Position numbers and translations under genes: made by a program. A DNA stretch of 64,000 nucleotides, taken from positions 67,133 through 131,132 of the forward strand of contig CAZKVS010000001.1 of NCBI GenBank assembly GCA_964556325.1. The letters run 5' to 3'. Positions 5,077-62,640 of this stretch are shown piece after piece (the first letter of the stretch is position 1; each line of letters opens with the position of its first letter). A model generated the notes under the pieces. The model worked only from the letters and a program-made list of their open reading frames with translations, was not told where the DNA came from and did not search any database. The stretch is from an uncultured Candidatus Saccharibacteria bacterium. Lineage in GTDB: Bacteria > Patescibacteriota > Doudnabacteria > UBA920.

Positions 5077-5169
5077 ATGTAGAAGTTAGAATGCAGAATT
5101 CAGAATGAATTATGCGCTGGGTGGGCTCTGCATTTTCTATTCATAATTCTACATTCATAATTCTGCATG
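5077..5169. repeat. Word-built intergenic palindrome (GAAT/AGAAT words)
   Basis: gtagaagttagaatgcagaattcagaatgaattatg ... cattttctattcataattctacattcataattctgcatg. Confidence 0.6.
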
Positions 5170-5553
5170 TATATGACCTACGCTAAACTGCTTGGTTTTG
5201 GATTTATTTTAGCCGCTGTCTTAGTTGTACTGAAAACTATTTTTTTCGGGTATTTTACGTGGGAAGATACTTCAGCGTTGCATTATGTGTATTGGGGTGT
5301 AGCTGCATTGCTAACGCCTGCATTAGTTCGGCGTTTGGGTGTTATTACTATTTTGGAGGCCATGGTAGTGGCTGTACTCTGGCTCGTAATGGAAATAATA
5401 GGGGATTTAATAATTGCCGCGCCCATTGCGGGTTGGCGAGTGTTGGTTGACTCCAATTTTGCTATCGGCTACCTTATTCCTTCTTTAGTTATATTTATGT
5501 TTCATAAAAAGCGTCACGTGCACGTGCGGAAGCAGCTCGCGGCGGCAAAATAG
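5167..5553 (+). CDS. Hypothetical membrane protein
   Basis: 128 aa with about four hydrophobic helices. Confidence 0.4.
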   Translation: MYMTYAKLLGFGFILAAVLVVLKTIFFGYFTWEDTSALHYVYWGVAALLTPALVRRLGVITILEAMVVAVLWLVMEIIGDLIIAAPIAGWRVLVDSNFAIGYLIPSLVIFMFHKKRHVHVRKQLAAAK

Positions 5554-5649
5554 TGGACAAGCATTGGAAGCGCCTCTCATCAAGGCGTTTTTTTTGTTAT
5601 TGACTATAGGTGTACGGTCGTATACTATACAAGAAATGACCACATAACA

Positions 5650-5737
5650 AATGTCTAATACCTAATTTCTAATGTCTAGTCGAAATGCACAAGACTGTCC
5701 GGACCATTAGGAATTAGATATTAGAAATTAGGTATTT
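5650..5737. repeat. Word-built intergenic palindrome (CTAAT words)
   Basis: aatgtctaatacctaatttctaatgtctag ... cattaggaattagatattagaaattaggtatt. Confidence 0.65.
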
Positions 5738-5749
5738 CTTTCTACCTGT

Positions 5750-7219
5750 ATGCAACGCATAATCATGCATATCGATATGAATAGCTACTTTGCTTCTTGC
5801 GAACAGCAGGACAATTTGGCGTGGCGCAATAAGCCGTTGGGAGTATGCGAGCATTTAGGGGGGATAATTATTGCGCCATCGGTCGAGGCGAAACGATGGG
5901 GGATTAAAACCGGGACGCCAGTGTGGGAAGCGCGAAAGCTGTGCCCTCAAATTATTTTGACTAAAACAAATCCAGATCGCTATCGATATTACACTGCCAA
6001 GTTTTTAAAAGTTTTTGAAGATTACACAGCAGATATTGAACGGTATAGTATAGACGAAGCGTTTTTGGATGTGACAAAAGTTTGCAATGTCCGGGCCTGT
6101 TCTCCCCCTCATGAGGGGGAGTTAGAGGGGGTCGTAGAACATGTCAATAATTCTCACATTACTATGACCTCCCTCAGCCCCTCCTCAAGAGGAGGGGGGC
6201 AGGAGAAAAGCTTGCCCTCAAGCGGGGGAGGACCGGATTTGGTTGACCCTTATGAAGAAGCAGCGCGTATTGCGAAAGAGATAAAGCAGCGCATGGAGCG
6301 GGAAGTGGGGGATTACCTGCGTTGCTCTGTGGGAATTGGCTGGAGTAAACTTATTGCAAAAATTGGCTCTGATATGCAGAAGCCCGATGGACTTACTGTG
6401 TTGCGCCCTATAGATAAGGCTTGGCTCTATAAGAAGTTGCAGTTGACGGATATGCCAGGTATTGGCACACGAATGGCTAGTCGTTTGCGAGAACGGGGTA
6501 TACGAACATTGGTGGACTTGCAGAAGTGTTCGGCTACTAGCCTACACAGTTGGTTCGGTATTATGGGCTATCATTTATGGTCTATGGGTCAGTTGGAGGG
6601 GCTGTGGCACGAAGATTTTTCCGAGCTTGCCCCTATAAAGTCGGTGGGGCATATGTATACCATTGCGGCAGAGTTTCGTAACCAGGTGGGTGTGGGAGAG
6701 CGAGTACTCTACAGGCTTTCAGAAATGGTTGCACGGCGGTTACGCACGCTGGGGGTAGGGGCAGTTGGACTGTCTGCACATGTGGCAGATAAAGAATATA
6801 ATTTTTTTGGCGGCCAACGACAGTTGGGTATCCCTACGGCAACAGGGCAGGATATTTTTCATGCTGCGAAACACGCCATAGTGGGAGAATTAGGCGGGGC
6901 GTGGCCAGCGACTATTTATCGCGTGGGGGTGACTGCGTTTGGCTTGCAGAGTAGCCAGCGCGTGCAGCTAAGCTTGTTTCCGGAAGTAAATAGACGCTTG
7001 CGTGCCGATGCGGCTTTGGACGCTATTAATCGAAAATATACCAAAGACGAGTGGCAGGAGGCACGAGAAAGAGCCTCTTTGGGGCGTACGCCTAGCAATA
7101 GAGGTGCTGACGCTATTTTGCCGGCTCCCGCATTTTTTGCCCAACGGGTTATTCGTGACTCCGCTGGGTTTGGTCGCATGCGGGAGTTTTCCGTTGCTGA
7201 TTATAAACGCGGCGATTAG
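5750..7219 (+). CDS. dinB: DNA polymerase IV (Y-family) carrying an in-frame ~48 aa insertion
   Basis: MHIDMNSYFASCEQ, IDEAFLDVT and LIAKIGSDMQKPDGL motifs. An extra GC-rich segment lies between the LDVT motif and the palm continuation (see findings). Confidence 0.85.
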   Translation: MQRIIMHIDMNSYFASCEQQDNLAWRNKPLGVCEHLGGIIIAPSVEAKRWGIKTGTPVWEARKLCPQIILTKTNPDRYRYYTAKFLKVFEDYTADIERYSIDEAFLDVTKVCNVRACSPPHEGELEGVVEHVNNSHITMTSLSPSSRGGGQEKSLPSSGGGPDLVDPYEEAARIAKEIKQRMEREVGDYLRCSVGIGWSKLIAKIGSDMQKPDGLTVLRPIDKAWLYKKLQLTDMPGIGTRMASRLRERGIRTLVDLQKCSATSLHSWFGIMGYHLWSMGQLEGLWHEDFSELAPIKSVGHMYTIAAEFRNQVGVGERVLYRLSEMVARRLRTLGVGAVGLSAHVADKEYNFFGGQRQLGIPTATGQDIFHAAKHAIVGELGGAWPATIYRVGVTAFGLQSSQRVQLSLFPEVNRRLRADAALDAINRKYTKDEWQEARERASLGRTPSNRGADAILPAPAFFAQRVIRDSAGFGRMREFSVADYKRGD

Positions 7220-7223
7220 CAAG

Positions 7224-7326
7224 GCAGAATTATGAATCATGAAGTATGAATCAAGAGATAGACCACTCTTTTTCTAAAAGAAAAAGAGTGGTCTCCATAA
7301 TTCATAATTCCACATTCTTGATTCCG
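7224..7326. repeat. Word-built palindrome (TGAAT words) around a terminator hairpin
   Basis: cagaattatgaatcatgaagtatgaatcaag | agaccactctttttctaaaagaaaaagagtggtct | ccataattcataattccacattcttgattc. Confidence 0.65.
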
Positions 7327-7377
7327 TGCCTCACTTTGCTGTGGTATACTAAAAGTACTGTGATTAAGCAAAAAAGT

Positions 7378-7647
7378 ATGGCAGACGAAACAGAAAATTA
7401 TAAAAAAATGTTGTCCGACTTAATCAAGAAGCAAATGGTTATGCTCGGCCCCAATATTGCGCTCGATAAAGCACGTAAAGTGCCCGGCTTAAAGTTGGAC
7501 GATAGTGGTGAAGTGTTGGAAATGGACGGCGATCCTCGTATGGTTTTAAAGGGTGTGGCCAATGAATATATGACACTTTCAGGCCAAATTGCTCAAATGA
7601 CTCTCAATACTTTGTTAGAAAAATATCCTGGGGTACAGAACATCTAA
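7378..7647 (+). CDS. Small hypothetical protein
   Basis: Internal ATG at 7378 (MADETENYKKMLSDL...). The upstream part of the 7246 ORF lies inside a terminator-like palindrome. Confidence 0.4.
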   Translation: MADETENYKKMLSDLIKKQMVMLGPNIALDKARKVPGLKLDDSGEVLEMDGDPRMVLKGVANEYMTLSGQIAQMTLNTLLEKYPGVQNI

Positions 7648-7650
7648 AAC

Positions 7651-7752
7651 CGATGCGAAACTACGAATGATGCGAATCAACGAATGTCCTACGAATGCAA
7701 TTCTCCGTAGCTGGTTCGTAGATTCGCATGTATTCGTATATTCGCATCGCAT
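7651..7752. repeat. Word-built intergenic palindrome (CGAAT words)
   Basis: gatgcgaaactacgaatgatgcgaatcaacgaatg ... cgtagattcgcatgtattcgtatattcgcatcgcat. Confidence 0.65.
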
Positions 7753-7764
7753 ATAAAATAAACA

Positions 7765-9429
7765 ATGTTACTCAACATAATTTTAATTGTAGACTTGGTC
7801 CTGCTGGCCATTATGGTGGGGGTGTATATTCATTACACCTTGCGTGAGCGTTATTTGCTGCAGGGTCAGGTTGGTCAAGCATATGAGCTCCAGCAGCGTA
7901 TATACCAAATTCAGGTGCTTAAGGAGATTGGGGAGCGTATTGGGTATTCGTTGGATACAAATAAAATCGTAGAAATTATTACCAGCAGCCTTGGGAGTTT
8001 ACTGGAGTACGATACCGTGTCGTACATGGTCTTGCAGGGACAGGGTGACCAGCTGGTGTTTAAGTGCCATGTCAATAACACCGTGACTCACGCGTTTTTG
8101 GGTGAAGTGCGGGAGAAAATGTTGTTGTCGGTAAGCGCTATCTTGGACCGGGATTTTAAACCGGAGCTGGTAGATGAAAGCGTGACGGGGAATATTTTAG
8201 ACGATAACCTCAAAGTAAGTCTAAAGTCCTATTTTAACTTGCCGGTTGTTATAGGCGATAAATTAGTAGGGCTTATTAATGTAGGTTCGCAAGTGCCCGG
8301 TCAGTATGGGGATGCACAGGCGTCTATTTTGTATTCTATTACCAACCAAGCCTCTACGGCTGTATCTAAGTTGCAAGCAGTGCTGGAGAGTGAAAAGGGT
8401 AAATTGGTTGCTGTCATAAACTCTATGACCGATGGGGTAGTCATGGTGGATATGCGTAACCAGGTGTTGGTATCTAACCCAGCTGTGCGAAGTCTGCTAG
8501 AGATTGCTGGTGGGCAAGACACAACTATGTATGATGTGGTGGACGCGCTGGCCGGCAAAGTAGATGTGCGGACTAAGATTGAGCAGGCCATTGGCACTAA
8601 GTCGCCCATTGTGATTAGTGGGGTACAGTTGAAAGACCATATGGTAGAGCTGACCATAACACCAGTACGAAGTCAACAAGGGGATCAGTTAGGTGCGGCG
8701 GTGGTGTTCCATGATATTACGACGGAAAAAGACTTAGAAAAGCTTCGTCAGGACTTTACGGCTATGATGGTGCACGAACTCCGTGCGCCATTAACTGCCG
8801 TACGCTGGTCCAGTGAGTCGTTGGGCAAAATGGCCGTACCCGGCGCGGCTATAGAACCTAAGAAAATAGAAGAAACAGCCCTCACTATAAGCTCAGCTTC
8901 TCGGAACATGCTGGAGTTGGTCAATGACTTGCTGGATGTAGCTAAAATTGAGGCTGGTAAGTTTGATTTGAACCTGCAAGAGTACGATATTGTCGCTATT
9001 ATTAAAGACCAGCTGCTTACCTTTAAGGCTTTGGCTGAGCAAAAGCGGCTGCAGTTGAGTGATACGCTTCCAGATAAATTTATGGTAAAATGTGACAAGG
9101 TTCGCATTTCTCAGGCTTTGGAGAACCTGCTGTCTAACGCTATAAAATACACGGACAGCGGCCAGGTTATGGTCACTCTCACTATAGACCAGCAGAACAA
9201 AAAAGCGACCGTGGCGGTGAAGGACTCTGGGGTGGGCGTCAGCCGAGAAGATATTTCGCAGCTGTTCTCCAAGTTCCGCCAGCTCAAAAATACTGATAAT
9301 GCTCGCAAGGGTACTGGTCTTGGGCTGGTGGTGAGTAAAGGTATTGTGGAGGCGCACGGCGGTCAAATTTGGGCGGAGAGCGCGGGCGACAACATGGGTA
9401 CGACTTTTTACTTTACATTACCATTATAA
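7765..9429 (+). CDS. Sensor histidine kinase (TM-GAF-PAS-HisKA-HATPase)
   Basis: N-terminal TM. H-box HELRAPLTAV. N-box LLSNAIKYT. G-boxes DSGVGV and GTGLGL. Confidence 0.85.
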   Translation: MLLNIILIVDLVLLAIMVGVYIHYTLRERYLLQGQVGQAYELQQRIYQIQVLKEIGERIGYSLDTNKIVEIITSSLGSLLEYDTVSYMVLQGQGDQLVFKCHVNNTVTHAFLGEVREKMLLSVSAILDRDFKPELVDESVTGNILDDNLKVSLKSYFNLPVVIGDKLVGLINVGSQVPGQYGDAQASILYSITNQASTAVSKLQAVLESEKGKLVAVINSMTDGVVMVDMRNQVLVSNPAVRSLLEIAGGQDTTMYDVVDALAGKVDVRTKIEQAIGTKSPIVISGVQLKDHMVELTITPVRSQQGDQLGAAVVFHDITTEKDLEKLRQDFTAMMVHELRAPLTAVRWSSESLGKMAVPGAAIEPKKIEETALTISSASRNMLELVNDLLDVAKIEAGKFDLNLQEYDIVAIIKDQLLTFKALAEQKRLQLSDTLPDKFMVKCDKVRISQALENLLSNAIKYTDSGQVMVTLTIDQQNKKATVAVKDSGVGVSREDISQLFSKFRQLKNTDNARKGTGLGLVVSKGIVEAHGGQIWAESAGDNMGTTFYFTLPL

Positions 9430-9433
9430 ATTA

Positions 9434-9568
9434 ACGCGATCCGAAATTACGAATACATGCGAATCTACGAATAAACTACGAGTGAGACACAGGTGTGTTT
9501 TAGTTCGTTGCTTCGTAGACTATTCGCAGATTCGAATCATTTGTAGTTTCGCATCGGATACATTCGTA
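9434..9568. repeat. Word-built intergenic palindrome (CGAAT words)
   Basis: cgcgatccgaaattacgaatacatgcgaatctacgaataaactacgag ... cttcgtagactattcgcagattcgaatcatttgtagtttcgcatcggatacattcgtat. Confidence 0.65.
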
Positions 9569-9569
9569 T

Positions 9570-9950
9570 ATGCCAAAGATTGTTATAGCAGAAGACGATA
9601 AGTTATTGTCCGGTTCTCTCGTAGGTGCCTTTACCGACGCGCATTTTGAAGTTTTTCCTGCCTACGACGGTGAGGAAGCCATAGCAAAAATTAAAGAAGT
9701 AAAGCCTGACGCAGTACTGCTCGACGTCATGATGCCGAAGCTAGACGGTATTGGCGTGCTCTGGGAGCTTAAGGCAAACCCTGATACTTCTGGAACACCT
9801 GTGGTTGTGCTGACTAACATGGCCGACATGGACACTATAGCCAAAATTATGGATGCGGGTGGAACCGACTACTTGCTGAAGAGTGACCAGTCCATAGATA
9901 AAATTATAGAAAAAGTGCAGCAGGTCATGGCCCGCGCAGCCGCTAAATAG
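9570..9950 (+). CDS. Stand-alone response-regulator receiver domain
   Basis: IVIAEDD ... LLDVMMPKLDG ... K near the C-terminus. No output domain. Confidence 0.8.
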   Translation: MPKIVIAEDDKLLSGSLVGAFTDAHFEVFPAYDGEEAIAKIKEVKPDAVLLDVMMPKLDGIGVLWELKANPDTSGTPVVVLTNMADMDTIAKIMDAGGTDYLLKSDQSIDKIIEKVQQVMARAAAK

Positions 9951-10040
9951 TGAACAGGGGACAGTGGAAAGTGAACAGGTATAATCCTGTCTTTCCTGAT
10001 TGGCTGTAAACTGTTCACTAGTCACTATCCACTACACTAT
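9950..10040. repeat. Word-built palindrome (GTGAACAG words)
   Basis: agtgaacaggggacagtggaaagtgaacagg ... actgttcactagtcactatccactacact. Confidence 0.5.
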
Positions 10041-10566
10041 GGATGTATTTTCTCACGGATTATGGGGATACGCTTTGGCTTACCCGAGTGCGCAAAAGCA
10101 ACAAAAGCCTAAAAAGGCTTTATGGGGCTTAGTGTTAGGTATGTTGCCGGACGTTATTCCTTTTTTACCGGTTCAATTATATTTTTTATTTCATCGGGTA
10201 TCGTTTGATGCTGGACTCTTCTTTCCTGTGCCCCAACATTGGGTTTTTTCGTGGGCAATTGAAAGTTACAATTATACGCACAGTTTAGTATTGTGGGCTG
10301 TTGTGTTTGCGCTGGTTTTGATTGTGCGAAAAGGGAAAGTATGGATTCCGCTGTATGCGTGGGGATTGCACGTGCTTATGGATATTCCAACTCATCCAGA
10401 TTTTTTTCAAACTCCATTTTTATTTCCGCTATCGAGCTTTAAGCTGGTTGGCTTTGGCTTGTCGTGGGCGCATCCCCTTATTTTCTTCACCAATTGGGCC
10501 GCATTGGCGGTCATCTACGTGTTTATATTTCGAGATATTCGTAAGAGCAAGCGGGCTAATTCTTAA
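10039..10566 (+). CDS. Membrane-bound metal-dependent hydrolase-like protein (DUF457/YdjM-like)
   Basis: MDVFSHGLWGYAL start and His-rich TM helices. Assigned from overall pattern only. Confidence 0.35.
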   Translation: MDVFSHGLWGYALAYPSAQKQQKPKKALWGLVLGMLPDVIPFLPVQLYFLFHRVSFDAGLFFPVPQHWVFSWAIESYNYTHSLVLWAVVFALVLIVRKGKVWIPLYAWGLHVLMDIPTHPDFFQTPFLFPLSSFKLVGFGLSWAHPLIFFTNWAALAVIYVFIFRDIRKSKRANS

Positions 10567-10569
10567 TTC

Positions 10570-11046
10570 GTGATTCGTAATTCCAACTTCTTCGTTCTCG
10601 CGCATAACATTCGGAGCCTGCACAATGTGGGGGCTATTTTTCGTACAAGCGACGTATTTGGGGTCTCAAAGCTTTATTTAAGTGGTTATACCGGTCATCC
10701 GCCAGATGCAAAGCTAGAAAAGGTGGCGCTGGGGGCGGATAAAACCGTGCCCTGGGAGTACAATAAGTCTGCGGTACGAATTGTTAAGAAATTAAGATTG
10801 CAATATCCCGAACTTGTCGTAGTTGGGTTGGAAAATAACATAAAGGGTCGCACCATTCAGTTACTCTCAAAGTTCAAACCGCAGTTCCCTGTGTTATTGG
10901 TATTGGGCGAAGAGGTGAAGGGGATTCCCAAGCCGGTACAAGCGTTATGCGATGCATTTGTAGAAATTCCCCAATACGGGCAAAAAGAGTCGCTTAACGT
11001 CTCGGTCGCCTTTGGCATAGCTGCATATGCCCTAAAAACCCAGTAG
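10570..11046 (+). CDS. SpoU/TrmH-family RNA 2'-O-methyltransferase
   Basis: NIRSLHNVGAIFRTSD ... LVLGEEVKGI ... ESLNVSVAFGIAAY motifs. Confidence 0.75.
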   Translation: MIRNSNFFVLAHNIRSLHNVGAIFRTSDVFGVSKLYLSGYTGHPPDAKLEKVALGADKTVPWEYNKSAVRIVKKLRLQYPELVVVGLENNIKGRTIQLLSKFKPQFPVLLVLGEEVKGIPKPVQALCDAFVEIPQYGQKESLNVSVAFGIAAYALKTQ

Positions 11047-11623: not shown

Positions 11624-12137
11624 ACATCATCCTTTCTGTTGCCGTTTCCGACATACAACCCTTGCAGCCGAAATTTGTAGCCACGGAGTCTGCTAACAAA
11701 ACAGTCTACAAAAGGTAACAAAAAACTTGTACCTTACCTATAGTGCAAGGCGCAAAACCCTTTCGGGAAAATACGCTTGATATAGCGCATGGACTTTTTA
11801 GTTTCCTTACACTATAGGTATGACACAAGTATAAAAACTTATTGCGTGCCGGTTTTGCGTTTTATGAGGGGGTCCAGCCCTATTTATTAAACTACTATAT
11901 AAATTATACCATGGCTTCCTTATTTTCTTCCTGTGGAAAACTTAAAAGTATCAGAAAAAGGTTTTGTATTTTTTTATGTTTTATAGTCGGTCATTTTTAT
12001 AATCCTACAGTACGAGGAGATAAGGCTAAGTTGTAGTAATGTGAATAAAGCCTAACATACGTTTTGCTCATTTGTTTATATAAAAAAGAAAAGGTGTCGC
12101 TGGCACACCTATTCTTTGATTTTTGGACGATGACTGT

Positions 12138-13840: not shown

Positions 13841-13893
13841 AGTGGTAGAAAGTGGATAAAAGTGGGGATAAGTGGTAGATAAAGTGGATAACC
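13841..13893 (+). promoter_or_regulatory. Five tandem AAAGTGG-type direct repeats about 10-11 bp apart, upstream of mraZ (putative MraZ operator)
   Basis: The run agtggtagaa agtggataaa agtggggataa gtggtagataa agtggataacc. It resembles MraZ-binding direct repeats (GTGGG / AAAGTGG) described in E. coli and Mollicutes. Confidence 0.5.
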
Positions 13894-13920: not shown

Positions 13921-13995
13921 ACCGCTGATCCTTGTATCCTTAATCCTTAACAAAATACACAATCGAGAATCGATTGTGTGAGTCAAGGATTAAAC
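13921..13995. repeat. Word-built palindrome (CCTTAAT words) with a central hairpin
   Basis: ccttgtatccttaatccttaac aaaatacacaatcgagaatcgattgtgtgagtcaaggattaaac. Confidence 0.55.
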
Positions 13996-13999: not shown

Positions 14000-14455
14000 A
14001 TGATTAGGGATGTACCCCCGCCTATGTTTATTGGTGAATACGATGCTTCAATAGACGATAAAGGTAGGGTTGCAGTGCCTACTAAGTTTCGAGCTGCCTT
14101 AAAAGGCAAGGTCGTGGTCACTCGCGGTCTTGATCAGTCGCTTTTTTTATACCAAAGTCCCGAGTGGAAAGTCATGGCGGAGAAGCTGGCTAGTCTCCCA
14201 ATTTCTACTGCAAATACTCGGGCCTTTTCCCGGCTGATGTTAGCCGGTGCGGTAGAGTGCGATATAGATAAACAGGGGAGAATTATCTTACCCAGCTATC
14301 TACAGGAGTTTGCCGGCATGTCTAAGCGGGTCATATTTGCCGGACTCTACAATCGTATAGAAATATGGAGCGAGGATCGGTGGAAAGCCTATAAGACTGA
14401 GACCGAAAAAGAAAGCACTGCCATAGCTGAGCAGTTGGGTAGTTTGGGAGTATAA
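14000..14455 (+). CDS. mraZ: Transcriptional regulator MraZ
   Basis: MFIGEYDASIDDKGRVAVP and a second DxxxR half-domain (DKQGRIILP). The true start may be the Met at 14024. Confidence 0.85.
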   Translation: MIRDVPPPMFIGEYDASIDDKGRVAVPTKFRAALKGKVVVTRGLDQSLFLYQSPEWKVMAEKLASLPISTANTRAFSRLMLAGAVECDIDKQGRIILPSYLQEFAGMSKRVIFAGLYNRIEIWSEDRWKAYKTETEKESTAIAEQLGSLGV

Positions 14456-14542
14456 GAAATATCTAATTTCTAATACCTAATATCTAATAAAAATACAAAG
14501 AATATTCTGTCATTAGAAATTAGTAATTAGGCATTAGAAATT
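14456..14542. repeat. Word-built intergenic palindrome (CTAAT words) between mraZ and rsmH
   Basis: aaatatctaatttctaatacctaatatctaat ... cattagaaattagtaattaggcattagaaatt. Confidence 0.65.
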
Positions 14543-15484
14543 ATGGCCGTCTACTCCCATACACCAGTTCTTTTACAAGAGGTTTTGGAATATTTGCAGC
14601 CTAAAGCTGGTGGCGTTTTTATAGACGCAACGCTTGGCGGCGGCGGGTACACAGAAGCAATTGCCACCAAGGTTGGCCAAAAAGGCAAGGTGCTATCGTT
14701 GGACCTAGATGCCGACGCAATCCAGGCATTTAAGGATAAACCTCGAATCTTGAAGCTCGAACCTGTCTTGGTTCAGGGAAATTTTAAAGACATCGCAGCT
14801 ATCGCTCAAGAACAAGGTTTTACCGGAGTAAATGGTATTGTGGCCGATATTGGCCTCTCAAGTTATGAACTTGATGACGCAGGGCGCGGCATTAGCTTTA
14901 AACACGATGAGCCGCTTGATATGCGTTTTAATGCCCAGTCCGATGGTGTGACTGCTGTGAGTTTACTCGCAGAAAAAACAGAATTAGAGCTGTCCACTTT
15001 GTTTACAAAATATGGTGAGGAGCGATACGCGCGTCCCATCGCCCGGAATATTGTTCGTACACGTACGGAAGAACCCGTTACGAGAACCACTCAGTTGGTG
15101 GATATTATTACGAACAGCATTCCGCGCGCTGTTAGACATAAAGCCCAAGATTCGTGCAGACGAATTTTCCAGGCTTTACGAATAGCCGTGAACGGAGAGT
15201 TGGACAATTTACAAGAGTTTCTACCAAGTGCGTTAAGTCTTCTTGCGCCAGGCGGTAGATTGGTTGTGGTATCTTTTCATTCTCTTGAGGATAGAATTGT
15301 AAAGCAATTCTTTGTTAAAGCCGCCACAGGGTGTATATGTCCGTCGAGTTTTCCCCAGTGTGTGTGTGGAAAGAAGCCACAAGTGCAAATTTTAACGCGG
15401 CGTCCTATTACGGCAGGTGAAGGTGAGCTTGCGCAGAACACACGGAGTCGCCCTGCAAAGCTGCGGGCAGCGCTTAAATTATAA
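14543..15484 (+). CDS. rsmH: 16S rRNA (cytosine1402-N4)-methyltransferase RsmH/MraW
   Basis: HTPVLLQEVLEYL, DATLGGGGY, SFHSLEDRIVK. Confidence 0.9.
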   Translation: MAVYSHTPVLLQEVLEYLQPKAGGVFIDATLGGGGYTEAIATKVGQKGKVLSLDLDADAIQAFKDKPRILKLEPVLVQGNFKDIAAIAQEQGFTGVNGIVADIGLSSYELDDAGRGISFKHDEPLDMRFNAQSDGVTAVSLLAEKTELELSTLFTKYGEERYARPIARNIVRTRTEEPVTRTTQLVDIITNSIPRAVRHKAQDSCRRIFQALRIAVNGELDNLQEFLPSALSLLAPGGRLVVVSFHSLEDRIVKQFFVKAATGCICPSSFPQCVCGKKPQVQILTRRPITAGEGELAQNTRSRPAKLRAALKL

Positions 15485-17764: not shown

Positions 17765-17828
17765 CCTCTGAGGCTATTTAAGACATCTCTAATCCTTGAT
17801 CTTTAATCCTTAATCAAATACGAAAGCT
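17765..17828. repeat. Left arm of the inverted repeat around the four-helix-bundle gene (CCTTAAT words)
   Basis: ctctaatccttgatctttaatccttaatc is mirrored at 18198..18245 as ggattaagcattacagattagagattaaatc. Confidence 0.6.
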
Positions 17829-18197
17829 ATGGATAAACATGGGTTTCGATTTCGTGATTGGCCAGTATATAAAGATGCTCGAATATTTCGAACTCAAATA
17901 ATGCTTTTGGCCAAAACATTTCCGAAAGAAGAGTTATATGCGCTTACAGATCAAACGCGACGGGCACTTAATTCAATATTGTTAAATTTAGCAGAAGGCT
18001 CTAACAAAAACACTGATAAAGATACACGGGTATATATAAACCGTGCACAAGGGTCACTCGATGAGGTTGTTGCCTGCCTTGATTGTGCAATCGATGATAA
18101 GTACATTACTGAGGCTCAGCAAAAAGAGGCGCTGGAAATTGCAGAGTCTCTGGCGAAACAACTTAAGAGCTTTACTGCGTACCTATCTTCTCGTTAA
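17829..18197 (+). CDS. Four-helix-bundle protein (23S rRNA intervening-sequence protein family)
   Basis: Typical length and heptad pattern of TIGR02436-like proteins (LNSILLNLAEGS...). Flanked by inverted word-repeats. Confidence 0.6.
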   Translation: MDKHGFRFRDWPVYKDARIFRTQIMLLAKTFPKEELYALTDQTRRALNSILLNLAEGSNKNTDKDTRVYINRAQGSLDEVVACLDCAIDDKYITEAQQKEALEIAESLAKQLKSFTAYLSSR

Positions 18198-18245
18198 GGA
18201 TTAAGCATTACAGATTAGAGATTAAATCGCGCTCCTGCGCGATTT
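18198..18245. repeat. Right arm of the inverted repeat around the four-helix-bundle gene, with a short GC hairpin
   Basis: ggattaagcattacagattagagattaaatcgcgctcctgcgcgatttg. Confidence 0.55.
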
Positions 18246-19390: not shown

Positions 19391-19466
19391 GTAGAATTAC
19401 GAAGTATGAATCATGAATTATGAATTATTAATCAAAAACTCTCTGCAAAGCAGAGAGTTTTTTTCG
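19391..19466. repeat. TGAAT word repeats followed by a terminator hairpin
   Basis: gtagaattacgaagtatgaatcatgaattatgaattatt, then aaactctctgcaaagcagagagttttttt. Confidence 0.55.
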
Positions 19467-35235: not shown

Positions 35236-35243
35236 TGCCCCCC

Positions 35244-35277
35244 TGTCATTCCGAGCGAGTCTTCGAGTCGAGGAATC
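35244..35277. repeat. Short copy of the TGTCATTCCG... palindromic element
   Basis: tgtcattccgagcgagtcttcgagtcgaggaatc. Confidence 0.4.
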
Positions 35278-35360
35278 TAAAGGTCAAACTGAAAATCTTG
35301 CTAATTTATGCGTTTATTGTATAATACCTGAGCAATTTAGAAGCCGTATTTATAGTATAT

Positions 35361-35378
35361 TGCCCGGTAGCCAAGTGG
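35361..35378 (+). repeat. Duplicated 5' 18 nt of tRNA-Gln (tgcccggtagccaagtgg)
   Basis: Identical to 35711..35728. Confidence 0.7.
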
Positions 35379-35450
35379 TCCCGATCAATATACGGGATCT
35401 GCGATAAGGCATCCCGATGCCGCATCGGGACATTCGAAGGTTCGAATCCT
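35372..35450. repeat. Structured repeat R, copy 1
   Basis: caagtggtcccgatcaatatacggg...aaggcatcccgatgccgcatcgggacattcgaaggttcgaatcc. Two hairpins and a T-arm-like end. Copies at 35799..35872 and 35944..35981. Confidence 0.55.
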
Positions 35451-35693
35451 ATGTACCATACGTATATTTTGGAGAACCCTGAAGGTCGGTTATATATTGG
35501 TCAAACTGATAATGTTGGGAATAGGCTATTGCGGCATAATTCTAACATGGTAAAATCAACAAAGAATAAGGGGCCTTGGAAGCTAATATATAGTCGCGAG
35601 TTTGTCGCTCGGAGTGAGTCGGTAGCGTTCGAAACTTATTTAAAATCTCTAAAAAGTTCGAAGTACATTAAATCTTATATAGTTGGTTCTTAA
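35451..35693 (+). CDS. GIY-YIG nuclease family protein (UPF0213/YhbQ-like)
   Basis: YILENPEGRLYIGQTDNVGNRLLRHN ... PWKLIYSREF ... E. The start codon directly follows repeat R. Confidence 0.7.
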   Translation: MYHTYILENPEGRLYIGQTDNVGNRLLRHNSNMVKSTKNKGPWKLIYSREFVARSESVAFETYLKSLKSSKYIKSYIVGS

Positions 35694-35710
35694 TTGGCTG
35701 CCCGTCATAG

Positions 35711-35784
35711 TGCCCGGTAGCCAAGTGGTAAGGCAGAGGACTCTGAATCCTCCATCCTAGGTTCGAATCCTAGCCGGGCAGCCA
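35711..35784 (+). tRNA. tRNA-Gln (anticodon CUG), CCA encoded
   Basis: Folded by hand. Acceptor TGCCCGG/CCGGGCA, anticodon stem GAGGA/TCCTC with loop CUCUGAA, T-arm CTAGG-TTCGAAT-CCTAG. The D-arm GCCAAGTGGTAAGGCA is close to E. coli tRNA-Gln. Confidence 0.8.
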
Positions 35785-35798
35785 ATTAAGAATCTAAA

Positions 35799-35872
35799 TC
35801 AAGTGGCCCCGATTAAGATGCGGGGTCCTCGATAAGGCACCCCGATGCTGCATCGGGGCATTCGTAGGTTCG
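35799..35872. repeat. Structured repeat R, copy 2
   Basis: caagtggccccgattaagatgcgggg...aaggcaccccgatgctgcatcggggcattcgtaggttcg. Confidence 0.5.
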
Positions 35873-35943
35873 CCCGTCTCGGCCGAGGAGAGGGCTGCCG
35901 AGCCGAGGTCGGAAATCCTTCCACCCCAGCCAAATAAATATAA

Positions 35944-35981
35944 AAGGCATCCCGACTCCGAATCGGGGCATTCCTAGGTTC
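35944..35981. repeat. Structured repeat R, partial copy 3
   Basis: aaggcatcccgactccgaatcggggcattcctaggttc. Confidence 0.4.
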
Positions 35982-36042
35982 TCCCGACCCCGCTATTATT
36001 TATAATATGACGTCGGGACCCCGACGTTGCGTCGGTGGGAAC

Positions 36043-36059
36043 CCTAGCCGGGCAGCCAA
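36043..36059 (+). repeat. Duplicated 3' 17 nt of tRNA-Gln (cctagccgggcagccaa)
   Basis: Identical to 35769..35785. Confidence 0.65.
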
Positions 36060-36061
36060 CC

Positions 36062-36086
36062 AAAATCGCCGAACAGGCGGTTTTTA
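36062..36086 (+). terminator. Intrinsic terminator (AAAATCGCCGAACAGGCGGTTTTTA), member of a 3-copy motif
   Basis: Stem cgcc/ggcg extended by A/T pairs, then a T-run. Near-identical copies at 37317 and 47845. Confidence 0.6.
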
Positions 36087-36121
36087 TATTATGCCTTTTA
36101 TTGTAGTGCTATCATTAAAGT

Positions 36122-53075: not shown

Positions 53076-53182
53076 CTGTCATTCCGGTTTCCACGAGGTC
53101 TTCCGAGGGAATACCGGAATCCAGTATTTCTAAGGCGTGGATCCCGGACAGCCCGCGAGGGCTTGTGGCTTCCGGGATGACA
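53076..53182. repeat. MITE-like element, copy B (107 bp)
   Basis: tgtcattccggtttcc...ggcttccgggatgaca. Confidence 0.6.
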
Positions 53183-54893: not shown

Positions 54894-54900
54894 AACAAGT

Positions 54901-55368: not shown

Positions 55369-55381
55369 TATTTGTTGAAAT

Positions 55382-57367: not shown

Positions 57368-57408
57368 ACAGTGATGCATGGAGAAAGCCATCCAAGAAGG
57401 GTGGCTTT

Positions 57409-58331: not shown

Positions 58332-58610
58332 ATGACGGGAGTAAAGATTCTTGAAGCGGTTGAGACTTATGAGCAGTTATTTGCGGAACGGGGTATGCAG
58401 CGCGTTAAAGTGTCACATGATATGGTGCCGCAAAATGCCGGCGAGCAATTGGGACATGCATATGCCATGCTGCCGCAATTACGAGAATTTGTAGCTGAAG
58501 GTAGACTGGAAAAAGCTTTTAGGTGGCTTGGGTTTATCCAAGGTGTACTCTGGGCGAACGGTGTGTTCGTCTTGGAAGACCTCAAGAACCATAATCGGCC
58601 GGTTTCTTAA
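58332..58610 (+). CDS. Hypothetical small protein
   Basis: 92 aa. Hairpin terminator at 58620..58660. Confidence 0.35.
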   Translation: MTGVKILEAVETYEQLFAERGMQRVKVSHDMVPQNAGEQLGHAYAMLPQLREFVAEGRLEKAFRWLGFIQGVLWANGVFVLEDLKNHNRPVS

Positions 58611-58748
58611 TCCCAGATCAAAGAATGTCTAGTTACACATACTCGACATTCTTTTGGGCGACCACTTTTTTTATATGTGATGGTGTATTGATTTATTCGT
58701 GTTTTCCTAGTATCCTTATGCGGCTTTACATCACTTTTCAAGGAGGCT

Positions 58749-59507
58749 TTGAAAGACATGGGACTGGTAGCATCTGTCCGTCCTAAAGCGAGTGTCACTA
58801 TGGCAGTGTTTGTACTGGCCGGCATGCACTTTTCCCGTCAACCTATTTCTTGGTTTGTGGTTTGCATGGTGTTGTTCATCGCTATGTTTGCGATGAGCTG
58901 GAATGACCTTTATGATCGGGCGGCAGACCGGCAAAAAGGAAAAATGTATGCATGGGAACATCCCAAACGACTGACCGCATTGGTTTCAGTTCTAGCCGTC
59001 ATTTCGTTCTCAATGACACTATTTGCGTTTACTCTCAGGACAGGGTTCGGATGTCTTGGCGTGGCTATATGGTTTAGCTCGGCCATATATCCATTTTTGC
59101 AAACCCGACCATGCATAAAGAATGTGACTGTTGCGCTTACCGTTGGGGCAACTGTCCTTTTCCCACTGTGTGTACAATTTTCTGCTGCTCAGTGGTTACT
59201 GTTTTGTTCCTTATGTTTATTGACGTCTGCTCGAGAGTTTTTGGGAGATGTTGATGGCGTGCGTGTTGAACAGTTCTACAAACGAACTGCCGCGATGGTA
59301 TGGGGTGTTCCTCGCTCCAAGAACGTTGCAGCAACGTTACTCATTGCATCATCGTTGGTGGCCTTTTTGTGGCCAGCCTTTTTGCTCGCCGCTATTCCGA
59401 CTCTTGTAGGAGCAGTTCTGCTCCTTGTTAACAAGAACTATGCTGTGGCTCGGTTGTTGTTAGAGCTTTCCCTGGTAGGTTGGGGAGTGGCGGCCTATAT
59501 GTCTTAA
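58749..59507 (+). CDS. UbiA-family prenyltransferase-like membrane protein
   Basis: NDLYDRAADRQKGK (NDxxDxxxD). Seven to eight TM helices. Confidence 0.55.
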   Translation: MKDMGLVASVRPKASVTMAVFVLAGMHFSRQPISWFVVCMVLFIAMFAMSWNDLYDRAADRQKGKMYAWEHPKRLTALVSVLAVISFSMTLFAFTLRTGFGCLGVAIWFSSAIYPFLQTRPCIKNVTVALTVGATVLFPLCVQFSAAQWLLFCSLCLLTSAREFLGDVDGVRVEQFYKRTAAMVWGVPRSKNVAATLLIASSLVAFLWPAFLLAAIPTLVGAVLLLVNKNYAVARLLLELSLVGWGVAAYMS

Positions 59508-59553
59508 ACAAAAAGCGCCAGGTTTCTGAATAGAAACCTGGCGCTTTGACGAT

Positions 59554-59928
59554 TTACACACTTAGTAGCTTTATTAAGTTGGCGTGCAGAGCAGCTACGG
59601 CTTCGTCTTTTTTGAGTGCTTCGGTGTAGTTAGTGCCAAAGGCGCCGTTGCCGCCGCCGGTGGTAGTGAGGGTGGTTTTGGTGTATTTGGCTATTTGGTT
59701 TATCTCGGCTTCGGTTTTGGCTTCCTTACTCTCTAAGAGTTCGTCCATGCTTATAACTAGAGCACTTAGGGTTTTGAGCCAGGCAAAAGACTCATCGTTC
59801 ACCACTAGCTGGTAGTAGTGGTTGGGGTTTTGAATGGGGCCAACGGTGGACTCATATGTGCGTTTTTGGTACTCCATCAGTGCCTTATGAAGCAGTAGAA
59901 GCTGCTCTCGAATTTCGCTTAAGTTCAT
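59554..59928 (-). CDS. Hypothetical protein
   Basis: Start moved to the internal Met (MNLSEIREQ). Confidence 0.35.
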   Translation of the reverse strand: MNLSEIREQLLLLHKALMEYQKRTYESTVGPIQNPNHYYQLVVNDESFAWLKTLSALVISMDELLESKEAKTEAEINQIAKYTKTTLTTTGGGNGAFGTNYTEALKKDEAVAALHANLIKLLSV

Positions 59929-60050
59929 AAATTTTACAACAATTGAACAATGTAACAATGAAACAATAGAACATTAGTATACCAAAATTAAGAAAAGAAC
60001 GTGATATAATACCCGTGCTTTGTTAAGTAGGCTCTAATTTCTTTTTCCGT

Positions 60051-60887
60051 ATGGCTGAATATTATAAAAGTTATAAACCCCGGACTTTTGACCCGGCGAG
60101 CAAAGAAGCCTTTAAAGTCTCCAGGAGTAAGATTGATTTTTTTGTAGATTGTCCGCGCTGTTTTTACATGGAAGCCCGACACGGGGTCAAACGGCCTAGC
60201 ATGCCTTCGTTTACACTCAATCTTGCCGTGGATGCTTTGCTTAAAAAAGAGTTTGATGTACATCGAACAAAAGGCAGTGCTCATCCTCTCATGGAAAAGT
60301 ATGGGTTGGACCTTGTGCCATTTAAGCATGTGCAAATGGACGAGTGGCGAGAGAACTTTGTGGGCGTGCGGACTTTACACCAGCCTACCAATTTGCTGGT
60401 GTTTGGAGCGGTAGATGACATTTGGGTGAGTAAAATGGGGGAGCTATTTGTGGTGGACTATAAAGCTACTAGCAAAGACACTGCCGTAACTGAGTTGGAG
60501 AACACAAAATGGCACGACCAGTATCGTCGGCAAATGGAGGTCTACCAGTGGTTGCTCCGTCAAAATGGTTTTACTGTTTCCAACACTGGTTATTTTGTAT
60601 ACGTAAACGGCAGGAAGGACTTAGCTGCCTTTGATGGCAAGCTTGAGTTTGAAGTTAATCTTATTTCGTACACGGGTAGTGACGCGTGGGTAGAGCAAAC
60701 ACTTTCGCGCATGAAAACGTGTTTATTGGGCGAGTTGCCGAGTATAAGCGACACCTGCGAATTTTGTGTGTATCGTAAATCTGCTCAGGGTTTTGAGGTT
60801 ACGGAGCAAAAGGCTAAAGTACCGGTGCAAGTGGCTAAAGCTGCTAAGAAAGTCCGTGCCACACCCATTGGCGAGCCGTTGTTTTAA
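60051..60887 (+). CDS. PD-(D/E)XK nuclease with Cas4-like cysteine pattern
   Basis: DDIWVS...VVDYKAT (D...D/ExK) and QxxxY. One N-terminal Cys (CPRC) and three C-terminal Cys (C-x11-C-x2-C), as in RecB-family Fe-S nucleases. Confidence 0.5.
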   Translation: MAEYYKSYKPRTFDPASKEAFKVSRSKIDFFVDCPRCFYMEARHGVKRPSMPSFTLNLAVDALLKKEFDVHRTKGSAHPLMEKYGLDLVPFKHVQMDEWRENFVGVRTLHQPTNLLVFGAVDDIWVSKMGELFVVDYKATSKDTAVTELENTKWHDQYRRQMEVYQWLLRQNGFTVSNTGYFVYVNGRKDLAAFDGKLEFEVNLISYTGSDAWVEQTLSRMKTCLLGELPSISDTCEFCVYRKSAQGFEVTEQKAKVPVQVAKAAKKVRATPIGEPLF

Positions 60888-60974
60888 TGTATAAGCCCGC
60901 ACATCGCACGCGTTGCCTTTTAAGCCGAAAAAACCTATACTAAAGTATAGGTTTTGTCTTTAAAATAGATACAT

Positions 60975-62135
60975 ATGCGGAGAATTATAGTTAGTATGTT
61001 AGGGCTTATGGGGGTGGGTCTTATGTTGTTGCCTTCAGTGAGTTTGGCAGCGGAGTTTGTAAAACCCTCAGACGATTCGGGCAACTTGGTTTTAAGTACC
61101 ACGGAAACACATAAGAACTTGTACACTGCGGGTGGAAATGTAACCGTGAATAGCGAAACAAAAGGCGATTTGTACGTAGCTGGCGGAGTTATTACCATAG
61201 ACGGTGCAGTGGAACAAGATGCTGTAATTGCCGGTGGTACGGTATTTGTAAACAGCAAAGTAGGTGGCGATGTTCGCGTGGCCGGTGGTACGGTTACTGT
61301 AAACGCAGATATTGCCGGTGATGTAGTGGCAGCCGGTGGCACACTCGTTATAAGCGAACGAGCTAAAATTGGTGGAGACTTAATCATGGCCGGTGGTACG
61401 GTAACACTCAGTGCGCCGGTAGCCGGTAAAGTGTGGGCAACAGGTGGCCAAGTGACAGTAGATAGCACAGTCGCTGGTGCAGTCACTATTAAGTCCGCTC
61501 GCATGGTGACTTTTGGCTCCCGTGCAAATGTGGCTGGTTCAGTTACCGTGACTGGCGAGCAAGAACCTGTGGTTCGTGACGGTGCCAAAGTGGGTACCAT
61601 TAACTACACCAAGTCCATGGAAAGTGCCACGGCTGGACAAGTTGCTCGCGTGTTGGTGCTTGGTAGCTTGGTCTGGGTGTTGGCCTCTATAGTTACTGCT
61701 TTGGTGTTTGCATGGTTGGCTCCTCGCCGAGTAGAAAACTTTGTGGCTGCTGTACAACGGAAGTTTTGGGTTAACGCTGCTATTGGGTTAGCTGCTTTAG
61801 TGGTTACGCCTGTCGTAATAATTGCTTTACTCTTCTTACTTGTGGGTTACCAGCTCGCTCTGCTGTTGCTAGTGGGGTATATATTTGCCTTAAGCATAGC
61901 CTGGGTTCTCGCTGTATTATGGACCGGTGTGCAAACCTATCATCTCATACAAAGGAAGGCCGCGGTGCCTATGGGCTGGCAAGTAGCGGTGCTAGGTGGT
62001 GTCATTTTCACCCTTGTTCGCTTTATTCCAGTAGTCGGCATGCTATTCTGTTTTGTAGTACTTATGGCTAGCTTTGGCGGGTTATTGGTCCAGGCAAAAC
62101 AGAGCTTAATTGAGCGACACAGCGAAGAAAAATAA
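60975..62135 (+). CDS. Bactofilin-like protein (polymer-forming beta-helix repeats) with C-terminal multi-TM domain
   Basis: Signal peptide. Repeated GGxVxVxxxVxGDV units. Four TM helices at the C-terminus. Confidence 0.55.
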   Translation: MRRIIVSMLGLMGVGLMLLPSVSLAAEFVKPSDDSGNLVLSTTETHKNLYTAGGNVTVNSETKGDLYVAGGVITIDGAVEQDAVIAGGTVFVNSKVGGDVRVAGGTVTVNADIAGDVVAAGGTLVISERAKIGGDLIMAGGTVTLSAPVAGKVWATGGQVTVDSTVAGAVTIKSARMVTFGSRANVAGSVTVTGEQEPVVRDGAKVGTINYTKSMESATAGQVARVLVLGSLVWVLASIVTALVFAWLAPRRVENFVAAVQRKFWVNAAIGLAALVVTPVVIIALLFLLVGYQLALLLLVGYIFALSIAWVLAVLWTGVQTYHLIQRKAAVPMGWQVAVLGGVIFTLVRFIPVVGMLFCFVVLMASFGGLLVQAKQSLIERHSEEK

Positions 62136-62246
62136 TTAATTTCCTCGGATGCACGGATAACACGGATTGCGCAGATTATGGAGCAGTGCCTTTCGTATTC
62201 TGTATTGCAATCTGTGATATCCGTGTAATCCGTAATCTGTGAACAT
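62136..62246. repeat. Word-built intergenic palindrome (CGGAT words)
   Basis: gatgcacggataacacggattgcgcagattatg ... caatctgtgatatccgtgtaatccgtaatctgtg. Confidence 0.65.
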
Positions 62247-62525
62247 ATGGGTATTTTAGACAAACTAAAAGACGTAAATGAAATGCGCAAGCAAGCCAAG
62301 CAAATAGAGCTGCTTCTTGGGCAGGTAGATGTAACTGGTAAGTCCTCCGGTGGTAAAATAATCATTACCATGGACGGAAACCAGGTCGTAAAAAGTGTAC
62401 AAGTGGACGACTCTATAGTAGGAGACAGGGGAGAAATAGCGCGTAACATTCGGGCCGCTTTAGACGATTTATTTAAAGAGCACAAGAAAGTGTTGCAGTC
62501 CAAGTTTGGTAGTATGATGCAATAG
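62247..62525 (+). CDS. ybaB: Nucleoid-associated protein YbaB/EbfC
   Basis: Length and pattern MGILDKLKDVNEMRKQAKQIE... Confidence 0.7.
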   Translation: MGILDKLKDVNEMRKQAKQIELLLGQVDVTGKSSGGKIIITMDGNQVVKSVQVDDSIVGDRGEIARNIRAALDDLFKEHKKVLQSKFGSMMQ

Positions 62526-62640
62526 TCGCAAAGAAATTTCCAATTTCTAATTACTAATTTCTAATGTGAAGTACAAAAACCTTATTGTATTCATAATTAG
62601 AAATTAGATATTAGGCATTAGATATTTGAGTCAAAACTAA
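62526..62640. repeat. Word-built intergenic palindrome (CTAAT words)
   Basis: ccaatttctaattactaatttctaatgtg ... cataattagaaattagatattaggcattagatattt. Confidence 0.65.

Follow-up and report, generated by a model that had tools for sequence, protein, structure and literature searches.

The intergenic DNA of an uncultured Candidatus Doudnabacteria genome (Candidate Phyla Radiation (CPR)/Patescibacteria) contains long imperfect palindromes, the arms of which are opposed tandem arrays of a short word. These word-built hairpins occur in 12 of the 55 intergenic gaps of at least 30 nucleotides (nt) within the 64,000-nt stretch analysed here, termed the window, to which the counts refer. We propose, with about even confidence, that they are stem-loop elements of the intervening sequence (IVS) type lying in spacers expected to be transcribed, eleven of them without an open reading frame (ORF) and one with an ORF in its loop. 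The link to IVSs is drawn because this ORF, a member of the PF05635 family, has inverted heptad arms, a feature shared by 20 of 41 testable metagenomic homologues, by plasmid-borne genes and by the IVS in the 23S rRNA of Azospirillum. Because none of the window elements sits in rRNA, we call them IVS-type rather than strict IVSs. The architecture itself is real, non-random and phylum-spanning, and its novelty is that of an A/T-rich, multi-word, mRNA-spacer variant of heptamer inverted arrays and IVS stems.

Each arm consists of about three to five degenerate copies of a 7-nt word (sometimes 8–10 nt), and whole elements are 70–150 nt long with a G+C content of 20–44%. Tandem Repeats Finder (TRF) returns period 7 (or 14, 17 or 21) with 2–4.7 copies in nearly every arm, and non-coding DNA has autocorrelation maxima at lags of 7, 14 and 21 nt, against a period of 3 alone in coding DNA. 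By TRF and lag-7 autocorrelation, therefore, the elements hold tandem 7-nt units in intergenic DNA, as heptameric simple sequence repeats do. The aligned arms form 391 Watson–Crick pairs, 20 G·T pairs, 15 A·C mismatches and 55 other mismatches, the mismatches clustering in two variable positions between 5-nt cores. Pairing is nearly as good after one arm is slid by 7 or 14 nt; the arms are thus two opposed arrays of one word and not exact inverted copies. We abandoned a possible rule whereby the A-rich word always leads in the direction of transcription: the palindrome is identical on both strands, so word order is uninformative on direction.

Minimum free energy in 100-nt windows does not separate the A/T-rich hairpins from G+C-rich coding DNA, and we therefore adopted a scan by banded stem alignment (scores of +1 per match, −1.5 per mismatch and −2 per gap; loop ≤40, span ≤300). 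The scan finds 26 palindromes with a score of at least 12, where 20 block shuffles average 1.6, and 11 that score at least 14 and span at least 70 nt, against 0.1 in the block shuffles; almost all lie outside ORFs, in non-coding DNA. A preliminary description of this DNA had listed twelve such loci, and RNAfold gives all twelve intervals z-scores of −4.1 to −9.2, that is, free energies 4–9 s.d. below those of mononucleotide shuffles. The reported observation is real, though its generality was overstated. An assembly artefact was considered and dropped, as a contig from a separate assembly is 100% identical to the window over 3,034 nt that include two of the hairpins.

The details of that list require some revision. 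Its coordinates are mostly right, and ten of the twelve loci are genuine long imperfect palindromes. There is, however, no palindrome at 19391–19466, and what was listed as one at 17765–18245 is a gene between two arms; this gene (17829–18197), then overlooked, is the main clue to the nature of the elements. A hairpin at 3291–3386 and a solo array at 10557–10583 had been missed. The statement that each intergenic gap carries a palindrome does not hold either: the 12 hairpin-bearing gaps all lie within 3.2–18.3 kb or 62.1–62.7 kb, and the other gaps contain ordinary sigma-70-like promoters, G+C-rich terminators and Shine–Dalgarno sequences. Nor does every locus have a word of its own. At least six related words coexist within the 64 kb, and some recur at two or three loci: CTAAT at 5650, 14456 and 62526, CGAAT at 7651 and 9434, GAAT-type words at 5077, 7224 and 19394, and ATCCTTA at 13921 and 17785. 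Copies with the same word are 70–76% alike in their periodic arms only; their loops are unrelated.

The ORF-bearing cassette (17785–18222) consists of two 28-nt word arms around a 122-amino-acid ORF on the + strand (17829–18197). The 5′ arm, built of ATCTCTA/ATCCTTA heptads (17785–17815; TRF period 7, 3.7 copies), pairs with a 3′ arm of TAAGGAT-type heptads that begins in the stop codon of the ORF (18195–18222; inverted-repeat score 15.5, z 7.2), and a small bidirectional terminator-like hairpin follows at 18225–18245. The ORF matches Pfam PF05635 (2e-26) and NCBIfam TIGR02436, the four-helix-bundle '23S rRNA intervening-sequence protein'. A relative of solved structure is XCC0516 of Xanthomonas (PDB 2GSC, five chains). 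The family is also related to Avd, a protein of diversity-generating retroelements that binds nucleic acid together with reverse transcriptase.

We found 331 homologues of the window protein. Many are 65–80% identical to it across CPR phyla, above the identity of RsmH (encoded at 14543–15484), which is 50–60% for the nearest genomes; that the PF05635 protein is the more conserved suggests horizontal spread of the cassette. In a survey of 46 metagenomic loci with 41 testable PF05635 genes, inverted tandem-word arrays bracket 20 of the 41. As a control, these loci contain roughly 120 other ORFs, of which only about 5–8 score as high, several of these being neighbours that share an arm. The arm word is ATCCTTA in all homologues of 62–75% identity, and GGGNCAA, GTTATTN, TTATNGC, GACNACA and others in more distant ones. 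Within 20 PF05635 loci, the only Rfam hits are tRNAs and a SAM riboswitch.

On annotated plasmids, the family is found mainly in Nostocales, and also in Riemerella, Azospirillum and Gemmatirosa. The Nostocales are the classical taxa of heptamer repeats, known as short tandemly repeated repetitive (STRR) sequences. Among the cyanobacterial and Bacteroidota plasmid loci (hosts Nostoc, Calothrix, Trichormus, Geminocystis, Picosynechococcus and Riemerella), the ORF lies between inverted heptamer arrays in 8 of 10 and is accompanied by direct ones in two. Some PF05635 genes are wedged within operons, between cas6 and cas4, cmr2 and cmr3, or sufA and sufB. The Gemmatirosa gene has inverted arms too, with an 8-nt unit. 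In Azospirillum lipoferum, the PF05635 ORF lies inside a 23S rRNA gene, a textbook IVS, and two arrays of period 7, with 3.9 and 4.1 copies, make up the terminal stem of this IVS by pairing with each other (z −9.7). Thus, at least one classical IVS stem is a word-built palindrome. Text searches of the literature yielded no paper tying heptad arms to PF05635 genes or to IVS stems. The comments of the TIGRFAM curators may contain a remark of this sort.

In one further locus, L114 (900–2890), the etfB–etfA operon contains both a GxxExxY ORF (TIGR04256, PD-(D/E)XK-like) and a PF05635 ORF, each in its own repeat-bracketed spacer. Judging by this setting, GxxExxY would be a second small gene family with the same lifestyle as PF05635.

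The preliminary description had called the palindromes possibly lineage-specific, which is not borne out: the same grammar surrounds PF05635 genes in CPR, Cyanobacteriota, Bacteroidota and Gemmatimonadota and builds the Azospirillum 23S IVS stem, and the published heptamer arrays of Xanthomonas and cyanobacteria match it also (PMC4692102). Its suggestion of an RNA-processing or selfish-repeat system comes close to our conclusion.

Set against rRNA IVSs with an S23p/PF05635 ORF (Leptospira, Coxiella and Alphaproteobacteria), the window elements share a long inverted-repeat terminal stem, an optional ORF in the loop, sporadic occurrence (orthologous gaps of relatives are found with and without a hairpin) and toleration within transcripts. 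The cassette resembles the Azospirillum IVS in having arms of about four 7-nt units, and four heptads make about 28 nt per arm, equal to the stem length of the Coxiella IVS. In Coxiella, RNase III excision in the middle of a 28-bp terminal stem, with the S23p ORF in the loop, has been shown experimentally, and RNase III excision of IVSs has been reported for Salmonella, Leptospira and Alphaproteobacteria (PMC4990558). IVSs are sporadic and are held in the literature to be horizontally transferred, and the rRNA genes of CPR bacteria have IVS-like insertions and 23S_rRNA_IVP ORFs (PMC11270868). There are also differences. rRNA IVSs lie in rRNA helices, whereas all window elements lie between or before protein genes, in mRNA spacers and untranslated regions (UTRs), with no rRNA detected in the window by Rfam. 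Unlike rRNA IVSs, 11 of the 12 elements have no ORF and loops of only 5–40 nt, and their stems are more A/T-rich and more mismatched.

The closest published analogue of the ORF-less form is the GGGAATC array of Xanthomonas, which mostly has four units, forms 70–75 inverted pairs per genome and is transcribed; such arrays are intergenic and preferentially lie between aligned ORFs and within about 50 nt of start or stop codons (PMC4692102). They are not conserved at the same genes in sister species, and inverted pairs can form stem-loops (PMC4692102). PF05635 and S23 have no occurrence in that paper. The STRR-type heptamers of heterocystous cyanobacteria and the Beggiatoa TAACTGA repeats are further relatives. 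In Xanthomonas and cyanobacteria, one or a few G-rich words are used genome-wide and are discussed as G-quadruplex formers, whereas the window words are A/T-rich and several related ones coexist (CTAAT, CGAAT, TGAAT, CGGAT and ATCCTTA). Direct TAACTGA heptamers of Beggiatoaceae, cyanobacteria and Bacteroidetes lie a few nt 5′ of start codons that lack a Shine–Dalgarno sequence (PMC4679880), a placement that resembles that of the window 3′ arms and of the solo array at 10557; they are, however, nearly always direct and of a single word, whereas the window arms are inverted. rRNA IVSs with S23p, the heptamers of cyanobacteria and Xanthomonas, and the hairpins of CPR operon spacers appear to follow one sequence grammar, described separately before. 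To our knowledge, the cyanobacterial and Xanthomonas heptamer repeats, long used for fingerprinting, have never been explained.

Other classes of small repeat were examined and set aside. Correia-, ERIC- and RUP-type MITEs (miniature inverted-repeat transposable elements), repetitive extragenic palindromic (REP) sequences and bacterial interspersed mosaic elements (BIMEs) are likewise small, intergenic, co-transcribed palindromes able to affect mRNA fate (PMC3184786). Unlike the window elements, they have a conserved family consensus, and none is built from tandem heptads; REPs are moreover G+C-rich and only 20–40 nt long. REP and BIME are excluded by the length and G+C content of the elements and by the absence of a conserved GTAG/CGTC head. 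A CRISPR array is excluded because the units are 7 nt long, contiguous and inverted between arms, and integron attC sites were considered and rejected. The word stems are not intrinsic terminators, as a terminator scan (short G+C-rich stem plus T run) does not pick them up; among the word elements it lists only an inner stem at 13957–13979, on the minus strand. By eye, the inner core at 7260–7293 and a separate hairpin at 19434–19462 are terminator-like. The preliminary description was therefore correct in separating the elements from REPs, CRISPRs and simple convergent terminators. Rfam finds only one tRNA in the window and no known RNA family over the hairpins.

To follow the elements through evolution, loci of relatives (numbered with the prefix L) were retrieved through RsmH, a comparison that places the window in Candidatus Doudnabacteria; RsmH identity is 81% for the closest genome and 50–60% for the rest. 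Several CPR loci contain 2–4 long palindromes per 10 kb, against mostly 0–1 in Firmicutes loci retrieved with the same query, and by eye the palindromes of the CPR relatives have word-built arms like those of the window. The gap between mraZ and rsmH has a hairpin in about 8 of 21 lineages, is reduced to 1–24 nt with nothing in it in 9, and has direct words only in two. The word is CTAAT in the window and in L024, TGAAT in L002, TAGTCTC in L003, TATTTC in L009 and L010, and TTTTCAA in L076. The question posed in the preliminary description, whether words co-vary between relatives so as to preserve pairing, can be answered in the affirmative for this gap: six to seven lineages use five to six words, and the arms are complementary in each. 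Other gaps behave similarly. Upstream of dinB, four lineages have a 5′ UTR hairpin with four different words and three lineages have none. Before the histidine kinase gene, the window, L002, L007 and L008 have a CGAAT-type hairpin; in L010 this gap is filled by a related one with CTAAAT/ACGAAA words. Between the window and L002, whose coding DNA is about 76% identical, six gaps can be compared: two have the same word (the hairpin at 7222 has an L002 orthologue of this kind), three have another word and one differs in the presence of the hairpin. Across CPR genomes, orthologous gaps are patchy, with the hairpin present, absent or built from another word. Within a locus, change in one arm is always matched in the other, but the element as a whole is dispensable, and its turnover is rapid, exceeding that of the flanking genes.

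There are also signs of movement between sites. The hairpins at 7651 and 9422, which are 1.7 kb apart, share a 24-nt stretch that is 100% identical, spacer positions included. In L076 (10900–11009; Moraniibacteriota) and L080 (4847–4957; a metagenome-assembled genome of the Parcubacteria group), two hairpins at non-orthologous sites have identical 19-nt and 17-nt termini, and in both copies there is no match between the left word (CTAAT) and the right word (ATTCG). These sequence identities suggest mobility of some families. The 19-nt L076/L080 terminus was compared with viral contigs and matched only unrelated coding DNA, a scan that is uninformative.

A query of (ATCCTTA)3 separately retrieved five viral contigs (L132, L136, L137, L140 and L148) that have direct (ATCCTTA)n/(TAAGGAT)n arrays at many intergenic sites, without PF05635 nearby. 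On one strand, these arrays amount to tandem Shine–Dalgarno-like motifs.

In the mechanism that we envisage for IVS-type elements, each one present on an mRNA would fold into an imperfect stem of 25–45 bp. By analogy with rRNA IVSs, RNase III would probably cut this stem, separating neighbouring cistrons or trimming a leader while leaving the host genes unharmed, and such harmless cleavage would explain why the elements are tolerated at these sites. In the case of the ORF-bearing cassette, cleavage would free a small mRNA with paired ends, made from the host transcript. More speculatively, the arrays may grow and homogenise at the DNA level by heptad slippage plus copying between arms, which would account for the slippery registers, for the existence of solo arrays and for the replacement of a word across a whole locus, and at least some families may spread between sites.

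Several points weigh against this proposal. Transcription, folding and RNase III cleavage are all inferred here from sequence alone (the RNase III excision shown for rRNA IVSs (PMC4990558) is carried over by analogy). On the sense strand of 24 hairpins, G–U pairs do not significantly exceed A–C mismatches (37 versus 26, p = 0.21), so there is no RNA-specific signature of selection. Many stems are weak, consisting of 5-bp A/U-rich helices split by 2×2 mismatches and near-equal in registers shifted by 7 or 14 nt, and such stems may not be cut by RNase III. Only 1 of the 12 hairpins has an ORF, and the ORF-less ones, with their unrelated loops, are assigned to the class by shared grammar and not by homology. 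The direct arrays at 10557 and 19394 show that heptad arrays exist without a stem. By eye, no target-site duplication is evident at hairpin borders, with no relative close enough for a comparison of filled and empty sites. Finally, the 64-kb window contains no rnc gene, transposase or reverse transcriptase.

The alternatives still carry appreciable weight. Among them, selected cis-regulatory mRNA structures have a minor but real chance of being the correct explanation. Here the stem would mask the start codon of the downstream gene, with translation of the upstream gene needed to expose it (translational coupling), or serve as a 5′ or 3′ stabiliser or attenuator. Upstream stop codons and downstream start codons do lie in stem bases (5074–5171, 9422–9572 and 14438–14565), genes behind hairpins lack the GGAGG Shine–Dalgarno sequence seen in other genes, the hairpin at 13921 pairs its AAGGA Shine–Dalgarno-like 3′ arm with the complement, and CGAAT-type hairpins persist before the histidine kinase gene in four lineages, with the related hairpin of L010 in that gap at about 55% RsmH identity; the TAACTGA heptamers of Beggiatoa likewise lie just 5′ of start codons without a Shine–Dalgarno sequence (PMC4679880). 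However, the same gaps are 1–24 nt long and free of hairpins in many relatives, so the structure is unnecessary for expression. Genomes that diverge by only about 24% have one word exchanged for another, the last word is at no fixed distance from the start codon, the G–U excess is missing, and the same grammar recurs in rRNA and around a selfish-looking ORF. The slippery arms, which pair near-equally at 7- or 14-nt slides, the two variable mismatch positions per unit, the solo direct arrays and the general period-7 autocorrelation of non-coding DNA would all fit a neutral mutational by-product, in which slippage during replication creates heptamer microsatellites in situ and template switching within a strand mirrors them, with no function, mobility or real tie to IVS cassettes; heptamer simple repeats are reported to be over-represented in many bacteria (PMC4692102). 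We give this account a small chance, as it leaves aside the strong cross-phylum association with one small gene family, the copy numbers matched between arms, the identical L076/L080 termini at non-orthologous sites despite their non-matching left and right words, and the 24 identical nt, spacer positions included, of two window hairpins. Streamlined CPR genomes, moreover, seldom keep 100 nt of junk in a fifth of their gaps.

It is unlikely, in our estimation, that the arms are primarily sites, in RNA or DNA, at which a multimeric protein binds and recognises some four to five 7-nt units in each arm, with the hairpin being secondary. The candidate would be the pentameric PF05635 protein or a partner: relatives are homopentameric (PDB 2GSC, five chains; Xanthomonas S23p pentamer, PMC4990558), the family is kin to Avd, arrays have about four units in the window, Azospirillum and Xanthomonas, and word type tracks protein clade, ATCCTTA at 62–75% identity giving way to other words in distant homologues. 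That correlation is expected from co-inheritance alone, though, and a single PF05635 gene faces at least six words in the window; on double-stranded DNA, a 7-bp spacing would be out of phase. Least probable is that the hairpins are MITEs of the classical sort, moved in trans by the product of a transposase gene elsewhere in the genome. Their size (70–150 nt), terminal inverted symmetry, intergenic positions and presence/absence polymorphism fit, as do the termini common to L076 and L080. MITEs, however, carry defined inverted repeats at their ends, accompanied by duplications of a TA or other target, and apart from the L076/L080 pair we find no family consensus with conserved terminal inverted repeats, copies of one 'family' being alike in their periodic arms only, no visible target-site duplication and no transposase within the 64 kb.

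A broader form of the IVS-type proposal, itself rather doubtful, would join heptad arms and PF05635 (perhaps also GxxExxY) proteins into one widespread cis/trans system. In such a system, a pentamer would read about four to five units of its own arm, as RNA or single-stranded DNA, and promote the excision, protection or spread of promoter-less cassettes within host transcripts (rRNA, tRNA clusters and operon spacers), with ORF-less word hairpins, cyanobacterial STRRs and Xanthomonas GGGAATC inverted pairs as non-autonomous relatives. This would give both the STRR repeats and the 'IVS protein' a role; for each, the function is reported as unknown (PMC4692102; PMC4990558). If the sequence grammar is indeed shared, IVS-type passengers would take up a fifth of the gaps between genes in such a genome and probably shape mRNA processing, and PF05635 cassettes would be a simple, testable model of genes hitch-hiking on host transcripts. 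The cross-link to PF05635 and IVSs renders two old puzzles testable, and the elements would offer concrete substrates for RNase III and PF05635 binding assays.

The placement of the individual elements agrees with the earlier view that most would be transcribed: they lie between co-directional genes, in 5′ UTRs after sigma-70-like promoters (3291, 5650 and 13921) or after a stop codon (7222). Some fill the entire spacer of co-directional genes, often with stop and start codons in the stem base. In the gap listing, the genes behind hairpins are without GGAGG, a sequence that many other window genes have. The hairpin at 3291–3386 (ATGAGnn/nnCTCAT, period 7) lies in the 5′ leader of mreB directly after a −10-like TATACT (promoter-like site 3264–3291), with a palindrome score of 16.5, 30 of 39 arm positions paired and TRF period 7 in 4.7 copies. 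An AGAATnn hairpin (5074–5171) fills the gap between the ORFs at 4555–5076 and 5167–5553, its stem base containing a stop and a start codon. In the 5′ UTR of dinB, a CTAATnn hairpin (5650–5737; z −5.7, score 19.5) follows a terminator (5566–5592) and a TTGACT-17-TATACT promoter. Directly after the dinB stop codon, an ATGAATn hairpin (7222–7331) encloses the central G+C-rich 16-bp hairpin at 7260–7293, and the next promoter is downstream of it. The CGAAT hairpin at 7651–7749, with a 17-nt double unit (z −9.2, score 22), separates the ORF at 7378–7647 from the histidine kinase gene, and another CGAAT hairpin (9422–9572) occupies the gap between the histidine kinase and response regulator genes, with stop and start codons in its stem base. 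After the response regulator gene, the hairpin at 9947–10040, with the word GTGAACAG, is weak (z −4.7, palindrome score only 11); this locus (listed as 9950–10040) and 13921–13995 are the weak or short ones. The latter lies just before mraZ, with ATCCTTA words in its 5′ arm and AAGGAT (Shine–Dalgarno-like) in its 3′ arm; its inner stem (13957–13979) is perfect, and the hairpin is absent in L002. A CTAATnn hairpin (14456–14543) fills the mraZ–rsmH gap, and weaker pairing reaches into both coding sequences (14438–14565).

At the far end of the window, a CGGAT/CAGAT hairpin of period 9 (62146–62232; z −6.8) precedes ybaB. It resembles by eye the L002 hairpin between the histidine kinase and response regulator genes, a pair that an all-versus-all BLAST did not report. 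Between ybaB and a D-Ala-D-Ala carboxypeptidase gene lies a CTAATnn hairpin (62534–62627; z −6.4, score 21), which is 76% like the 14456 hairpin in its arms only. Two solo direct arrays, both on the + strand and found by TRF, complete the set: TAATTCG in 3.9 copies at the junction before spoU (10557–10583), without an opposed arm, and ATGAATC in 4–6 copies (19394–19434), which adjoins the classical terminator at 19434–19462 and forms no palindrome. Mechanical ORF calls begin inside arms at 7246–7647, 3317–4402 and 10000–10566; the true starts are likely at 7378, ~3386 and ~10042, respectively. False start codons and ORFs within arms, of which 7246 and 3317 are examples, are to be expected from gene callers.

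Other features of the window were noted as well. Between a −10-like TATACT and mraZ, four AAAGTGG-N3 repeats of period 10 (13849–13888), conserved in almost every CPR relative, probably serve as the MraZ operator of the division and cell wall (dcw) operon. At 5606–5628, GGTGTACGGTCGTATAC overlaps the dinB promoter, and a GTGAAC-N4-GTATAC-like box is found 5′ of dinB in seven related genomes; it is probably a LexA/SOS box. Within dinB itself, a 108-nt G+C-rich imperfect palindrome (6096–6203) lies in frame, stretching the Pfam IMS domain by about 50 residues, and the alignments of relatives end at 6090. A 39-nt piece of it recurs with 92% identity in an intergenic gap of L008 (7064–7102), and the whole has the look of a dispersed palindromic element inserted in frame, similar to Rickettsia palindromic elements. 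A palindrome with 26-nt arms between two small ORFs (11725–11830) is not word-built and is of a different kind. Further downstream, the leader of tRNA-Gln (35711–35784; region 35687–35792) is complementary at 22 of 23 positions to the 3′ end of the tRNA plus trailer, and the surrounding ~900 nt (35236–36121) contain tRNA-like fragments and a 43-nt repeat (at 35834 and 35944). Finally, G+C-rich hairpins at 35240, 53081–53180 and 63536–63635 have a common GTCATTCCGG-type motif and make up a second family of dispersed structured repeats.

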